Assembly (NCBI GenBank): GCA_964610305.1
Contig: CAZSVL010000001.1
Coordinates: 6,083-70,082 of the forward strand
Direction: 5' to 3'
Source: an uncultured Gammaproteobacteria bacterium
GTDB taxonomy: Bacteria > Patescibacteriota > Patescibacteriia > Magasanikbacterales > JBBTXJ01
Length of the DNA: 64,000 nt
In this document: positions 5,159 to 41,584 of the stretch, in pieces
How the letters are laid out: each line of letters begins with the position of its first letter
Position numbering within the stretch: position 1 is the stretch's first letter
Notes under the pieces: generated by a model
What the model was told of the DNA's origin: nothing
Databases searched by the model: none
What the model saw: the letters and a program-made list of their open reading frames with translations, nothing else
Made by a program: the position numbers and the translations under genes

Positions 5159-5174
5159 TGTTTTCAATATTTAT

Positions 5175-5207
5175 GTCATCCCGGGCTTGACCCGGGATCT
5201 CAAGAAC
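5175..5207 (+). repeat. type-2 hairpin repeat GTCATCCCGGGCTTGACCCGGGATCTCAAGAAC, immediately upstream of the GIY-YIG start codon
   Basis: Same GTCATCCCGG...CCGGGATCTC ends as the other copies; its reverse complement occurs at 17422-17454. Confidence 0.7.
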
Positions 5208-5504: not shown

Positions 5505-5516
5505 TTCTTGAGATCC

Positions 5517-5560
5517 CGGATATTTTGCTCTGCAAAATTCCGGGATGACAGTATTGGTGT
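5517..5560 (-). repeat. type-1 hairpin repeat in inverted orientation, 12 nt after the GIY-YIG stop
   Basis: CTTGAGATCCCGGATATTTTGCTCTGCAAAATTCCGGGATGACAG is the reverse complement of the core at 683-720, 17355-17394 and 41545-41584. Confidence 0.7.
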
Positions 5561-7884: not shown

Positions 7885-8181
7885 ATGGCAAGCATTTTAG
7901 GAAAAAGTAGCGTACTTAAAGGCCTCATGGTGGTCCTCATATTAGTATTGGGCGTGGGGTATATAGACATGATTAGCGATACGGCCACAAAAGGGTATGT
8001 GATTGCAGATTTAGAAGATACGCTGGTAGATCTTCAAAAGGAAAATCAACTACTCTCTATAGAAGTGGCAGAGTACTCTAGTATGAGCACGGTGCGCGAT
8101 CGCCTACAAAAATTAGGCATGATAGAGGCAGACGATGTTGAATATCTAACGCCTGTGGGTAGCGTGGCTAGCAGAAGATAG
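7885..8181 (+). CDS. FtsL-like / septum-formation-initiator-like bitopic membrane protein
   Basis: Short cytoplasmic tail, one TM (VLKGLMVVLILVLGVGYI), coiled-coil (LEDTLVDLQKENQLLSIEVAEY); sits after rsmH; the ATG at 7885 directly follows the rsmH stop. Confidence 0.5.
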   Translation: MASILGKSSVLKGLMVVLILVLGVGYIDMISDTATKGYVIADLEDTLVDLQKENQLLSIEVAEYSSMSTVRDRLQKLGMIEADDVEYLTPVGSVASRR

Positions 8182-8216
8182 AAGGACCGGCTTAAAAATG
8201 ATATAATAGCTCTACG

Positions 8217-8576
8217 ATGAGCTTTTTTGTTATAAAAAGACTTCTGTGGGAAACGGCTACCAGTCCGTTTGAAACAGCTGTTTGGTGGTATACCAAAGGG
8301 CTTTCTTCTGTTTCTCATTGGTATAGGTTTGTCATTGTTAGGGGTAATGCACGCTTGGGTGTATTGCTTTGGATAAAAAATATTTTTGTGCCCATGTACG
8401 GCCAGAGAGATTGGCAGGGCAGAGCCGTAAGTATTGGTGTGCGCATAGCGCAAATAATTGGGAGGGGTTTTGTTTTTATTTTATTGATAATAGGCATGAC
8501 GGCGCTGCTGCTGCTTTGGGTGGTGGGGCCGGTTCTTATTATTATGGGTTTGGTTAGTAGCTTACTTGGACTGTGA
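8217..8576 (+). CDS. hypothetical small membrane protein
   Basis: 119-aa ORF with a C-terminal TM run; its stop overlaps the GTG of the next gene (GTGA). Confidence 0.35.
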   Translation: MSFFVIKRLLWETATSPFETAVWWYTKGLSSVSHWYRFVIVRGNARLGVLLWIKNIFVPMYGQRDWQGRAVSIGVRIAQIIGRGFVFILLIIGMTALLLLWVVGPVLIIMGLVSSLLGL

Positions 8577-17295: not shown

Positions 17296-17340
17296 TACCC
17301 CAGTTTCTGGGGTTTTTTTATTCATCGCGAGAAAAACCCG

Positions 17341-17503
17341 GCCGCGGCGCGGGCGTCATCCCGGAATTTTGCGCAGCAAAATATCCGGGATCTCAAGAAC
17401 GCTTTGCCGCAGGTGTTTTTACTTGAGATCCCGGGTCAAGCCCGGGATGACAAGATGCGAAGCATTTTAGAAAAAGATACCACGGCCGTGAGGCCGTGGA
17501 GTT
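17341..17503. repeat. composite intergenic repeat, copy B (about 165 bp), twin of 671-834; ends at the dinB stop codon
   Basis: Type-1 hairpin 17355-17394, type-2 hairpin (rev) 17422-17454, tail ...GACAAGATGCGAAGC...ACCACGGCCGTGAGGCCGTGGAGTTTCATTTAAG. Confidence 0.7.
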
Positions 17504-18820
17504 TCATTTAAGAGGTCTCGCTAGAAGAGGAATTCCAATACGCTGCCTCAACGTTTCTCCTTTAAAGAGGGTTTTTTTACGCAGGCCAGACTCATGGCGT
17601 TCGTGCGTGCCGTCTGGTCCTTTTTGCACTTTTTGTGCGGCGCCCATAAAGACGGTGTGTTTGCCGTATTTTTTGTCTAAATCATCCACGGCGTCAAAAA
17701 TCCTATCTAATTTATGGGTGCGATTAGTGTCAGAGAATAAATCTAGCTGCACCGTTTTCTCATCTTTTAGTTTGTGAAGAGCTACGCTGGTGGATCTATA
17801 AAAGGTGTCTTTTTTAAAGAGTTTGTCATACGCTGCTCGTGCAGCGGCTATAACATCTACGGGGTTATTGCTGGCATGGGCCAATGTAACAGATGCGCCG
17901 CGTCTACTAAAGTTTTTTTTGTGGAGCGCAAAGGTAACCTTTGGGCATACTAAATTCATGCGCCTGGCTTTTATACACGCGTTTTCTATATTTCTACATA
18001 GATGCGCAAAGACCAGCTCTTTATCTGAGCTGCTAGGAGAGAAGGTTTTTTTCTTACGAATAGATTGGCGTGGCTTGGGTGGCGCATCGGTAACGGAGTA
18101 TATCAGCCGTCCGTTAAGCTCATGCCAAATTTCCTGGTGAGGTTTAGTAAGATAGCGCATGACCCAGTCTTCATCCTTTTTTGCGAGAGTTAGTGCGTCG
18201 CGAATGCCCATAATACGCAGATATTCATGTGTACGCGGACCAATGCCCCATATATCTTTTGGATGTGTGTCTTTAAGGAATTCATGAATTTTGCGGCCGG
18301 GAATTTGCGTGATGCCAAAAGGTTTTTTCCACTTGCTGGCCACTTTTGAAAGTACTTTTGTGGGAGCCAAACCTAAGGAAAACGTCATGCCCAGCTCTTT
18401 GTAAAGTGTATCCTGCAGCGTTTTAAGAATTTTAGGAAAGCTCATGCGTAGTGGTCTGCGCATGCCGGTGAGGTCCGCAAAGCATTCATCTATGCTGTAT
18501 TCTTCAACGGTGTGTGTGTACCGGCGGACAATATCAAAAAAACGCTGAGAAAAGAGGCTGTAACTTTCATAATCTGAAGGAACAAAAATAACATCGGGGC
18601 AGAGCTTTTTAATAGTGTGATATGGCATGGCGCGCGTAACGCCCGCGGCTTTTGCCTCATAAGAAATAGAGGCTGCAATACCGCGTTCTTTTCCGGTAAT
18701 AACGGGCTTACCCTTCCACGCAGGATTAAGCGCTTGCTCGCAAGAAGCAAAAAAAGCATCGCCATCTATATGCAAAATGGCGCGTGGATAAGAGCTAAGC
18801 ATGAGTGGTTGGGTAGGCAT
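17504..18820 (-). CDS. dinB: Y-family DNA polymerase IV (DinB)
   Basis: ILHIDGDAFFASCEQALNP catalytic N-terminus, SIDECFADLTG, little-finger region; start taken at the MPTQPL ATG. Confidence 0.85.
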   Translation of the reverse strand: MPTQPLMLSSYPRAILHIDGDAFFASCEQALNPAWKGKPVITGKERGIAASISYEAKAAGVTRAMPYHTIKKLCPDVIFVPSDYESYSLFSQRFFDIVRRYTHTVEEYSIDECFADLTGMRRPLRMSFPKILKTLQDTLYKELGMTFSLGLAPTKVLSKVASKWKKPFGITQIPGRKIHEFLKDTHPKDIWGIGPRTHEYLRIMGIRDALTLAKKDEDWVMRYLTKPHQEIWHELNGRLIYSVTDAPPKPRQSIRKKKTFSPSSSDKELVFAHLCRNIENACIKARRMNLVCPKVTFALHKKNFSRRGASVTLAHASNNPVDVIAAARAAYDKLFKKDTFYRSTSVALHKLKDEKTVQLDLFSDTNRTHKLDRIFDAVDDLDKKYGKHTVFMGAAQKVQKGPDGTHERHESGLRKKTLFKGETLRQRIGIPLLARPLK

Positions 18821-18915
18821 GTTTTCCACTTGACAGATGGTCGAAGGTGAAGTATATTGGATACACAAATGGCTTCGGCCTCCGAGACCTCGCACACCCG
18901 TGCGAGGATCGTTTT

Positions 18916-19314
18916 TTATATAAAACTTTTAATTTTTTTCTTTATTTCTTCGAATTCATCTTTTGGTAGCGTACGGATTTTTCTTAATAAACGTTTGGTG
19001 CTGATTAGTTTTAATTGCGAGAGGATAAGTGTGTAAGTCTTATTTTTGTATATCGTTTCATGATAATATTTTCCTTGTTTAATTTTAGTACTTAACGGGA
19101 TTACCCATAAAAGATGCGGATTAAAACCTTTTAGAACAAGGGCAGGTCTTTGAAATGAGGCACCTTTTCCGTCCTGCTCGTGGCCCAAGTTTACTCCAAA
19201 ACTACACCACCAAATTTCTCGTTTTTGATAGAAGATAGTAGATCCTTTAATTTTTTGTTGCAGTCGTATTTTTAGCTTTGTCCATTGAACTATCTCATTT
19301 ATTTTTTTACTCAT
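18916..19314 (-). CDS. PemK/MazF-family endoribonuclease toxin-like protein (132 aa) with no adjacent antitoxin
   Basis: REIWWCSFGVNLGHEQDGK...RPALVL, then IPLSTK and a C-terminal helix, parallel the PemK/MazF motifs (GEIWLVSLDPTAGHEQQGTRPVLIV...P.T...); lies between lexA and dinB. Confidence 0.6.
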   Translation of the reverse strand: MSKKINEIVQWTKLKIRLQQKIKGSTIFYQKREIWWCSFGVNLGHEQDGKGASFQRPALVLKGFNPHLLWVIPLSTKIKQGKYYHETIYKNKTYTLILSQLKLISTKRLLRKIRTLPKDEFEEIKKKIKSFI

Positions 19315-19319
19315 ACCAG

Positions 19320-19880
19320 CTAGTACTTCCGCACCACACCAATAACCACCGCTGCAATATTAAGCTCTTCTTCTGGAATTATATTTTCAAATGATTTATT
19401 TTCTGCTTGCAGATACACTTTTTTTCCAGACTTGCGTAGGCGTTTAAGGGTCCATGCGTGGTCCACCTCTGCAATAACAATGTCTCCGTCTGTGGCGCTG
19501 CGCCCGCGCTCTGCCAGCACCATATCTCCTGGCATAATGCCCGCCTCAGACATACTCATGCCCGATACTTTAAGCATAAACGTACTCTCTGGACGCTCCA
19601 GTAGCCATTGATCCAAGCTAAGGGTGTCCACGAGCTCTTCTTCTGCGGCAGAGGGAAATCCTGCTTCTATGGATCCTAAAACCGCCAGCTCTCCCAATCG
19701 ATGGGGGAGCAGCTTGCCTTGCGTGTCCTTTTTTAAAAACCCTTCATCTAAAAGTTTGCGTACCACCTTATAAGCCGCGTTTTTAGATTTAAACCCAAGC
19801 AGCTGCGCAATTTCACCGTAGCTGGGCATGCGTCTGTTTTTTTTATAAAACGAATGAATTTTATGAAGATGTTTTGGCAT
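19320..19880 (-). CDS. lexA: LexA repressor (S24 peptidase)
   Basis: N-terminal winged HTH (SYGEIAQLLGFKSKNAAYKVVRKL), AV^LG cleavage region, Ser (VSGMSMSEAG) and Lys (WTLKRL) catalytic dyad. Confidence 0.9.
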   Translation of the reverse strand: MPKHLHKIHSFYKKNRRMPSYGEIAQLLGFKSKNAAYKVVRKLLDEGFLKKDTQGKLLPHRLGELAVLGSIEAGFPSAAEEELVDTLSLDQWLLERPESTFMLKVSGMSMSEAGIMPGDMVLAERGRSATDGDIVIAEVDHAWTLKRLRKSGKKVYLQAENKSFENIIPEEELNIAAVVIGVVRKY

Positions 19881-19970
19881 AAAAAAGTCCGTGCTAAGTT
19901 TACGCAGGAGCGGGGTGGCCCTTTGGCGCCTGCGTAAATTCAGAAAGGAGTTGAAAAAGGAGCTAAAAAT

Positions 19971-19999
19971 AGTATAGTAAACGATCGTTCACCATGCAA
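19971..19999 (-). promoter_or_regulatory. putative lexA promoter (-35 TTGCAT, 17-nt spacer, -10 TATACT) with a Cheo-box-like palindrome in the spacer
   Basis: Minus strand reads TTGCAT GGTGAACGATCGTTTAC TATACT; TGAACGATCGTTTA matches 7/8 of GAAC-N4-GTTC; the leader holds a 10-bp inverted repeat TTTACGCAGG...CCTGCGTAAA (19898-19938). Confidence 0.35.
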
Positions 20000-20019
20000 G
20001 TGGATAACTCCCCAAGGTA

Positions 20020-20048
20020 TTGACAAAAAAGCGTATATATGCTATACT
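20020..20048 (+). promoter_or_regulatory. cspA promoter TTGACA-N17-TATACT, followed by a roughly 135-nt 5' UTR
   Basis: TTGACA at 20020-25, TATACT at 20043-48; the long leader is typical of cold-shock mRNAs. Confidence 0.45.
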
Positions 20049-20188
20049 CTGCGCAAGCAAAAAGTGATGCCTTTTGGATAGAAATGTAGTCAGTTTCGTC
20101 CCGGTAGTCGTTTTTGCCGGATTTACTCATTTCCGTTTTGAGCAGAGGGTAGGAAACTGCCGTTTGGTCAAAGCGCCATTATCAAAAT

Positions 20189-20389
20189 ATGGCACAAGGA
20201 ACCATTAAGAAGCTTACCGACAAAGGCTTTGGTTTTATCACCCAAGAGGGTCAGGACCAGGATCTTTTCTTCCACCACAGTGGACTTCAGGGTATTACCT
20301 TTGAAGAGCTTCGTGAAGGTGACGCAGTAACCTTTGAAGTCGAAGAGGCTGAAAAGGGACCTCGCGCAGTAAACGTTGCGCGCGCGTAA
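20189..20389 (+). CDS. cspA: cold-shock protein (CspA family)
   Basis: GTIKKLTDKGFGFITQEGQDQDLFFHHSGL... (RNP1 KGFGFI, RNP2 FFHHS); 66 aa. Confidence 0.9.
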   Translation: MAQGTIKKLTDKGFGFITQEGQDQDLFFHHSGLQGITFEELREGDAVTFEVEEAEKGPRAVNVARA

Positions 20390-33099: not shown

Positions 33100-33118
33100 A
33101 TCAAAACACCAAGCTTTT

Positions 33119-33162
33119 CTTGAGATCCCGGATATTTTGCTTCACAAAATTCCGGGAGACAG
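33119..33162 (-). repeat. solo type-1 hairpin repeat (variant ...CCGGGAGACAG)
   Basis: CTTGAGATCCCGGATATTTTGCTTCACAAAATTCCGGGAGACAG; followed by a terminator-like hairpin at 33176-33203. Confidence 0.65.
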
Positions 33163-35642: not shown

Positions 35643-35650
35643 ACTATTCT

Positions 35651-35727
35651 GTGAGATCCCGGATATTTTGCTCCGCAAAATTCCGGGATGACGTGGCGGA
35701 TGATTCCCAAAATTTCGGGATGACAAG
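35651..35727 (-). repeat. type-1 hairpin repeat plus an adjacent partial second copy
   Basis: GTGAGATCCCGGATATTTTGCTCCGCAAAATTCCGGGATGAC, then GATTCCCAAAATTTCGGGATGACAAG. Confidence 0.65.
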
Positions 35728-41544: not shown

Positions 41545-41584
41545 GTCATCCCGGAATTTTGCGAAGCAAAATATCCGGGATCTC
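41545..41584 (+). repeat. solo type-1 hairpin repeat
   Basis: GTCATCCCGGAATTTTGCGAAGCAAAATATCCGGGATCTC, essentially identical to 17355-17394. Confidence 0.7.

Follow-up and report, generated by a model that had tools for sequence, protein, structure and literature searches.

A conserved convergent small-RNA gene adjoins a MazF-fold protein gene between lexA and dinB: a candidate RNA antitoxin in Patescibacteria-type genomes

Which partner controls a MazF-type gene that lies between lexA and dinB and has no antitoxin gene beside it? MazF and PemK are known from textbooks as type II toxins, counteracted by protein antitoxins, and genome annotations often contain MazF genes labelled "orphan". 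The question is raised by a 64,000-nucleotide (nt) stretch of contig CAZSVL010000001.1, hereafter the window, to which all coordinates refer unless a locus is named. On its minus strand lie genes for the SOS repressor LexA, a PemK/MazF-like protein of 132 amino acids (aa) and a Y-family DNA polymerase. A sequence-only reading of the locus had regarded the middle gene as an orphan toxin, with LexA acting in effect as its antitoxin at the transcriptional level. All three gene identities were borne out by profile matches. The toxin gene is, however, not an orphan: it is followed, here and in nearly all members of its family, by a conserved small-RNA gene on the opposite strand. The features needed for the argument are:

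19320..19880, minus strand: lexA, SOS repressor, 186 aa (TIGR00498, 128 bits, cutoff 110.95; PF00717 Peptidase_S24, 92 bits)
18916..19314, minus strand: pemK, PemK/MazF-fold protein, 132 aa, candidate toxin (PF02452)
18865..18917, plus strand: small RNA of about 53 nt, candidate RNA antitoxin (covariance model R2, fold)
18830..18858, plus strand: sigma-70 promoter of the small RNA, TTGACA at 18830-18835, 17 nt, TATATT at 18853-18858 (11 of 12 consensus positions)
17504..18820, minus strand: dinB, Y-family translesion DNA polymerase (DinB/Pol IV-like), 438 aa (IMS, 151 bits; IMS_C, 52 bits)

The answer which we favour, with modest confidence, is that toxin and RNA antitoxin form a module that was inserted into the lexA-dinB operon, the toxin being driven by the SOS promoter and the RNA by a promoter of its own. 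That the RNA is the antitoxin of this toxin is probable, because no other partner was found and because RNA genes of the same kind persist beside toxin remnants in two loci.

The RNA is predicted to start near 18865 with the 5' motif ACAAAUGG, followed by hairpin 2 (GGC-UUCG-GCC, 18871-18880), the linker UCCGA, hairpin 1 (18886-18910, GA+CCUCGCAC/GUGCGAGG+UC) and a U-run (18912-18917) which overlaps the pemK stop codon (18916-18918). The fold has a predicted energy of -21.9 kcal/mol (z = -4.1). Across the family the element on the strand opposite pemK reads TTGAC(A/T), 16 or 17 nt, TAnnnT, 5 to 7 nt, ACAAAUGG, hairpin 2, (C)UCCGAGA or AAYYGAGA, hairpin 1, UCG and a U-run reaching the toxin stop codon, with ACAAAUGG and YCGAGA as conserved single-stranded motifs. 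A GGAGG followed by TTG within the element resembles a ribosome-binding site and start codon for dinB. As the origin of the element this was rejected, because the same sequence is found behind toxin genes that lack a neighbouring dinB, and because longer or shorter forms of hairpin 2 alter its spacing; in the window operon it may have a secondary use of this kind. A peptide read from the AUG inside ACAAAUGG was likewise rejected, as insertions and deletions in hairpin 2 shift the frame.

For the family comparison the best 80 of at least 512 relatives of the PemK-like protein among species-representative genomes were used; all are Patescibacteria-type uncultured assemblies, some of them filed under other names. 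Pairwise comparisons refer to L081/L082, one independent relative, which shows the same layout as the window (csp / lexA-pemK-RNA-dinB) and from which the window is separated by a synonymous divergence (dS) of 0.86-1.28, with LexA 97.3%, DinB 90% and PemK 77% identical. About 60 nt past the toxin stop codon are conserved at the nucleotide level where the proteins are only 43-58% identical, and between window and L081 60 of 60 nt of the small-RNA region are the same at a dS of about 1. A covariance model (R1) was established from 12 sequences, and a second one (R2) was rebuilt from its 34 matches. In the 644 kb of window and family loci, R2 had 65 matches with E<=0.01, all opposite to the pemK strand and nearly every one directly past the toxin stop codon; weaker matches with the same position and strand were found in 17 of the remaining loci. 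The window contains a single match (18859-18920, plus strand, 33.2 bits, E = 1.4e-4). In a control of 426 kb, composed of lexA loci of comparable genomes, R2 found nothing at E<=1. Rfam gave no match at E<=1 for the element in the window and eight family loci, the pemK motif RF02913 included. The element or variants of it extend to more distant family members, with 32.6 bits for the P0074 loci and, by eye, a longer variant in P0082 and a degenerate one in P0071.

In the alignment of the 65 sequences, 98.0% of the cells at paired positions hold standard pairs, compared with 73.7 +/- 1.0% in shuffles. All 13 pairs have changed on both sides, with 172 compensatory cells versus 42 +/- 5 in shuffles, and pairing drops to 43-64% when the 3' partner is slid by one to three columns. 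Since G-U pairs account for about 52 cells on the strand opposite to pemK and non-pairs for only 16, this strand is taken to be the one that folds. In 49 of the 65 R2 matches the RNA is preceded, at a distance of 0-3 nt, by an exact TTGAC-N16-18-TAnnnT, as against 11 of 20000 random positions (0.055%), and a T-rich tail is present in 94% of the matches.

The same element could be a signal at the level of DNA, such as the end or recombination site of a mobile element, or a passive one, namely a bidirectional terminator with an insulating promoter, in neither case acting on the toxin. This would fit the mobile-insert behaviour of the module and the fact that hairpin 1 serves as a terminator; in addition, subterminal hairpins, as found at the transposon ends of the IS200/IS605 family, are typical of some transposons. 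We regard this explanation as quite unlikely. The tolerance of G-U on one strand only points to structure at the RNA level, and the promoter lies at a fixed distance from the conserved 5' motif. Hairpin 1 is kept even beside another terminator: five loci (L011, L023, L054, L068 and L069) have a separate bidirectional terminator between hairpin 1 and the toxin gene. Furthermore, neighbour clustering of the 80 loci revealed no transposase that travels with the module. A search of 2.9 million viral contigs gave no relatives, and carriage by phages was therefore rejected, too.

The protein encoded by pemK is a MazF/PemK-fold protein with the predicted catalytic residues in place. The profile search which the sequence-only reading had proposed agrees with its assignment: PF02452 (PemK_toxin) matches residues 31-131 with 50.8 bits (cutoff 23.1). 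Its N-terminal extension exists and is conserved in the family (W11, K15), with a length of about 30 aa instead of the 40 aa estimated before. An AlphaFold model (mean predicted local distance difference test score, pLDDT, 88.6) consists of an N-terminal helix (residues 2-23), a MazF-type beta core and a C-terminal helix. The top 50 Foldseek matches in the PDB are all of the MazF type (MazF, YdcE/EndoA, MoxT), with target-normalised template modelling scores (TM-scores) of 0.62-0.83; the best come from S. aureus, B. cereus, B. subtilis, B. anthracis (MoxT), M. tuberculosis and E. coli. In a profile search of solved structures B. subtilis MazF ranked first (E = 5.5e-6). The invariant R56-P57 aligns with R25-P26 of this enzyme, including the catalytic R25 (R29 in E. 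coli), and S75, a position occupied by Thr or Ser across the family, with T48 (T52 in E. coli); in the profile alignment five residues are inserted ahead of the catalytic Arg. A dN/dS of 0.11 against L081 indicates that pemK encodes a constrained protein and is not decaying. The search for close homologues gave 82 proteins of about 130 aa, and at E<=1e-30 the family comprises 429 clusters (50% identity) in a library of 1.84 billion representatives. The PADLOC defence-system models gave no match for the toxin. In a public NCBI record the same protein is given with 90 aa, 99% identical over 68% of the ORF; this version apparently starts at an internal TTG, so that the first beta strand and the conserved helix at the N-terminus are missing.

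No protein partner was found for this family. The earlier statement that no antitoxin-sized open reading frame (ORF) adjoins the gene was confirmed by inspection of all six frames in the window and L081 and of the neighbours of the 80 homologues. A protein antitoxin was thus rejected, as nothing conserved was detected, and the frames of antisense ORFs at the module are not conserved either. The family is without a protein partner throughout, since the 285 ORFs flanking the 80 homologues are spread over 261 unrelated clusters. UvrA adjoins the PemK gene in three loci, which looks like chance. In one locus (L058) a group I intron match (8089-8314, plus strand, 94.6 bits) lies about 3.7 kb downstream of the PemK-family gene.

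The module also shows copies and remnants. At least two modules of toxin and RNA per genome are present in L055 (4001-4445, 5629-6095), in L077 (253-640, 997-1593) and in L006 and L009, which lie on one contig; some of these duplicates are less than 2 kb apart. Extra RNA genes with promoters of their own but no intact toxin were detected in L042 (4528-4588), L050 (4487-4548) and L028 (566-624), all on the minus strand. Those of L042 and L050 adjoin a remnant of about the last ten PemK residues (EIKQKLRSFL*). Antitoxins that outlive their toxins are the usual fate of toxin-antitoxin pairs.

The extent of SOS control was assessed from the promoter region of the operon, which comprises:

19971..19999, minus strand: lexA operon promoter, -35 TTGCAT at 19994-19999, 17-nt spacer, -10 TATACT at 19971-19976
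19979-19990, minus strand: LexA box GAACGATCGTTT, within the promoter spacer (pattern match)
19899..19938, minus strand: hairpin in the lexA 5' leader (TTTACGCAGG...CCTGCGTAAA; fold -26.5 kcal/mol, z = -3.5)

Taken alone, the 12-mer of the LexA box is not significant in the window, where 11 matches with one mismatch are found and 18.5 are expected. The motif was therefore derived by comparison of 80 metagenomic loci with LexA proteins 47-65% identical to that of the window, of which 78 had usable upstream regions. A perfect GAAC-N4-GTTC precedes lexA in 30 of the 78 and one with a single mismatch in 23, as opposed to 0.14 and 4.1 in shuffles; together, 53 of the 78 regions carry a box with at most one mismatch (4.3 expected). 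The extended consensus is aGGTGAAC-N4-GTTCACCT, with AGGTGAACGATTGTTTACTA in the nearest relatives and tGGTGAACGATCGTTTACTA in the window. Promoter and operator of lexA are 100% identical in window and L081. The LexA protein itself has a winged-helix N-terminal part and, by inspection, an Ala-Gly cleavage site and the Ser/Lys dyad of S24 peptidases; its gene has a dN/dS of 0.016 against L081. The hairpin in the lexA leader (about 84 nt) has 10 bp and shows a compensatory change of A-U to G-C in L081.

From the lexA stop codon to the pemK ATG there are 5 nt, as described before. When the minus strand was scanned for consensus promoters, nothing promoter-like turned up from the lexA start to the pemK gene, and the scan's sole match on that strand falls within dinB (17668-17697). 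As a consequence of the short gap and the lack of another promoter-like site, co-transcription of pemK with lexA is the simplest reading. The previously noted distance of 20 nt to dinB has to be corrected to about 95 nt. It was based on the first in-frame GTG (18895), to which the maximal ORF extends and which lies within the conserved RNA hairpin. Alignments with the polymerases encoded behind lexA in related loci begin at residue 1, the Met at 18820, so that the ATG at this position is most likely the start. SOS control of the PemK-like toxin is therefore plausible in the lineage of the window, considering the 5-nt gap, the missing promoter-like site of its own, the LexA box and a layout that is kept at a dS of about 1. 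It is not a trait of the family. LexA boxes are not enriched upstream of 78 other PemK-family genes, and neither lexA nor dinB occurs within 4 kb in any of the 80 best family loci.

These results bear on the proposal of a true orphan toxin that is silenced by LexA alone, with the downstream element as a mere hairpin of the operon mRNA. The 5-nt gap, the LexA box in the sole visible promoter and the absence of a protein antitoxin would fit such a situation. We consider it very improbable: the family stands alone everywhere and is linked to LexA nowhere else, so that LexA is not its general control, and the toxin has beside it a conserved convergent RNA gene that possesses both a promoter and a terminator of its own. 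Moreover, the lexA promoter has to remain partly open for the synthesis of LexA itself, and the basal level of toxin would then be unopposed. LexA as the antitoxin was thus not upheld, and, in spirit, the cognate antitoxin that the sequence-only reading had looked out for beside the gene in related genomes has a candidate in the conserved RNA gene.

How the module came to lie behind this promoter can be deduced from related lexA loci, 66 of which had enough downstream sequence. In 47 of them dinB lies within 200 nt of lexA and the genes often overlap, which is why lexA-dinB is considered the ancestral operon. Inserts of 0.2-3.3 kb separate the two genes in 15 loci, and dinB is absent in four. 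None of the 80 related lexA loci contains a PemK gene. According to this comparison, the module of pemK and RNA (about 490 bp, from about 19319 to 18830) is a lineage-specific insertion into the ancestral lexA-dinB operon; the dinB ATG lies 10 nt from the end of the -35 element that belongs to the RNA promoter. The control of a MazF-type toxin by LexA, as proposed before, would accordingly be restricted to the lineage of the window. Other inserts at the lexA-dinB junction are likewise small genes of a selfish type and encode an IS200-like Y1 transposase, 23S-rRNA intervening-sequence (IVS) proteins (twice), a Bro-N protein, a PD-(D/E)XK nuclease and a DUF5680 protein. The junction gives the impression of a hotspot for insertions in this clade, or of a site where they are tolerated. 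Examples among the lexA loci (L083-L162) are found in L092 (4569-5288), L112 (4582-5004), L143 (890-1261), L115 (2324-3172), L148 (672-1025) and L103 (2116-2973); the 23S-rRNA-IVS inserts are four-helix proteins.

For the inserted module of toxin and RNA antitoxin, the following course of events can be envisaged. The RNA would keep its own promoter and be made constitutively, while transcription of the toxin would start at the promoter repressed by LexA. Because hairpin 1 does not terminate transcription in the direction of the toxin, most toxin mRNAs should carry the complement of the RNA; the lexA-pemK-dinB mRNA would have to run through the RNA gene and would contain its full complement. 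Upon DNA damage the toxin unit would be induced and the toxin mRNA would rise relative to the RNA pool. The complement in the operon mRNA would titrate the RNA, the RNA promoter would possibly be occluded, and RNase activity would be released alongside the translesion polymerase. As to the mode of neutralisation, the RNA may bind the toxin protein in a type III-like manner, or, as type I antitoxins do, it may pair with the toxin mRNA, in the 3' region complementary to it. Binding of the protein is slightly favoured because the sequence motifs are kept phylum-wide and hairpin 1 is retained despite a separate terminator, and the lack of cognate-specific pairing with the toxin 5' region also speaks for it. 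The type I-like mode is backed by the convergent geometry and by the complement that most toxin mRNAs should carry.

Several points weigh against this reading. We infer the toxicity of the protein and its neutralisation by the RNA, and both the transcription of the small RNA and the co-transcription of pemK with lexA are predictions made from the DNA sequence. The arrangement lexA-pemK-dinB occurs in only one independent relative, L081/L082. The covariation was counted on an alignment fitted to the model and is thus biased towards structure. Hairpin 1 at the same time serves as a terminator, and some of its covariation would be expected on that account alone; termination does not explain hairpin 2 and the conserved flanks. 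Duplexes of the RNA with the toxin ribosome-binding region have the same energy for cognate and non-cognate combinations (-16.7 and -16.5 kcal/mol, p = 0.41), so that pairing in trans with this region was rejected. The single-stranded motifs of the RNA are not depleted in the toxin genes, and avoidance of motifs as a hint to the cleavage site was discarded, as the 5-mers which are depleted look unrelated to the RNA motifs.

Protein and RNA might also form a housekeeping ribonucleoprotein or a pair of enzyme and substrate, in which the protein processes or binds the RNA or is guided by it and does not inhibit growth. Such a role would agree with the very wide distribution of the family in small, streamlined genomes, with RNA motifs beyond the need of a pure antisense regulator and with the invariant Trp and Lys in the N-terminal helix. 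We judge it unlikely, as the position of the gene differs among genomes and multiple copies occur (L055, L077, and L009 with L006 on one contig). Decayed copies and insertion into unrelated operons are the behaviour of a selfish module and not of a core gene, and the catalytic MazF residues are retained.

Comparison with known systems allows a first classification of the module of MazF-fold protein and RNA. With MazEF and PemIK (Kis-Kid) of type II it shares the toxin fold and the predicted catalytic residues. It differs from them by the absence of a MazE/PemI-type gene in the window and the 80 related loci, by the additional conserved N-terminal helix and by the insertion of four to five residues before the catalytic Arg. 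Type III systems (ToxIN, CptIN, TenpIN; PMC3401426) likewise combine a Kid/MazF-related endoribonuclease with an RNA partner and no protein antitoxin, and the conserved motifs of the window RNA would fit direct recognition by the protein. In type III the RNA is a tandem-repeat array upstream of the toxin on the same strand, with a terminator before the toxin gene, and is processed by the toxin, whereas the RNA of the window is single-copy, has a promoter of its own and is located downstream of the toxin gene, on the opposite strand. Next to the toxin no tandem RNA repeats were found, and type III-like repeats were therefore rejected; the one Tandem Repeats Finder match in 17300-20300 (19944-19969, 2.2 copies of 12 nt) is part of the lexA leader. 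The toxin belongs to the Pfam family PemK and not to ToxN/AbiQ, CptN or TenpN, and the CptIN model reaches 15 bits with a cutoff of 90.

Closer in geometry are type I systems such as TxpA/RatA and BsrG/SR4 of B. subtilis and par (Fst/RNA II) of E. faecalis (PMC4147584), in which a convergent RNA has its own promoter and a terminator hairpin is placed at the toxin 3' end, and in which, as would be the case here, the toxin transcript carries the complement of the RNA. Type I antisense RNAs may overlap the 3' end of the toxin gene or share its terminator (PMC4147584). Their toxins are mostly small membrane peptides (<60 aa), unlike the soluble MazF-fold protein of 132 aa. In addition, the sequence of the RNA described here is conserved phylum-wide, which is not required for antisense pairing in cis, and in some loci an extra terminator separates the toxin gene from hairpin 1. 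The cis-regulatory pemK RNA motif RF02913 is a structured RNA associated with pemK genes as well, but the window element, which this model does not match, lies downstream and on the opposite strand. Somewhat more tentatively than the module itself, and a little short of an even judgement, we suggest that a MazF-fold RNase neutralised by a single-copy, convergent, structured RNA represents an architecture that is undescribed and neither type I nor type III, is found in hundreds of species of the candidate phyla radiation (CPR) and is wired to the SOS response in the window. In the literature searched, a MazF/PemK toxin with a small-RNA partner is undescribed, which is absence of evidence and not proof of novelty.

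The proposed regulatory logic is close to two systems of E. coli. In SymE/SymR a LexA-repressed toxin is buffered by a constitutive small RNA encoded in cis (PMC1891008), and yafNO is a toxin module within the dinB transcription unit (PMC2814082). The fold of SymE is AbrB/MazE-like, and SymR overlaps with the symE mRNA at its 5' end; yafNO is a protein-protein pair of type II downstream of dinB. In the window, by comparison, a MazF-type toxin lies between lexA and dinB and the candidate RNA antitoxin at the 3' end of the toxin gene. TisB/IstR-1 and DinQ/AgrB were compared as further SOS-controlled toxin modules of E. coli.

The authors of TASmania pointed out that orphan toxins could have undetected RNA partners (PMC6504116), and the family presented here is a concrete and testable case: a phylum-wide MazF subfamily whose sole conserved partner is a structured RNA with a promoter. 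If this RNA is the antitoxin, it would extend the antitoxin mechanisms known for the most-studied toxin fold, provide a new RNA family for Patescibacteria, whose RNA biology is almost unknown, and offer a simple system for studying how an RNA inhibits a MazF-type RNase. The insertion between lexA and dinB would be a natural example of a selfish module gaining SOS control, parallel to SymE/SymR and yafNO, and suggests that in these genomes small selfish genes use the junction as a landing site.

Within the window, which has a GC content of 44.8%, lexA, pemK and dinB are single-copy. For the polymerase, the top NCBIfam models are those of Pol IV. With 438 aa it is larger than a typical Pol IV, and it shows a weak match to DUF4113 (UmuC C-terminal) and 164 bits with the UmuC model; its constant pairing throughout the clade with an S24-peptidase protein (LexA) resembles a umuDC-like arrangement. 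The operon ends downstream of the polymerase gene:

17480..17499, minus strand: intrinsic terminator, 8-bp GC-rich stem followed by a T-run

The terminator stem shows a compensatory change in L081. Just past it, at 17330-17475, there is an element with internal inverted repeats (e.g., GTCATCCCGGGCTTGACCCGGGATC), which recurs at 659-804, 5174-5204, 5505-5549, 33117-33157, 35647-35693 and 41545-41584 with 73-100% identity. With at least six further copies in the window it looks like a miniature mobile repeat.

On the other side of the operon, divergent from lexA, lies a cold-shock-domain gene (20189-20389, plus strand) with a near-consensus promoter (TTGACA-17-TATACT, 20020-20048). Its leader of about 135 nt is 73-100% identical to that of L081 per 40-nt window, mostly above 90%, and is for the most part better conserved than the neighbouring coding sequence.

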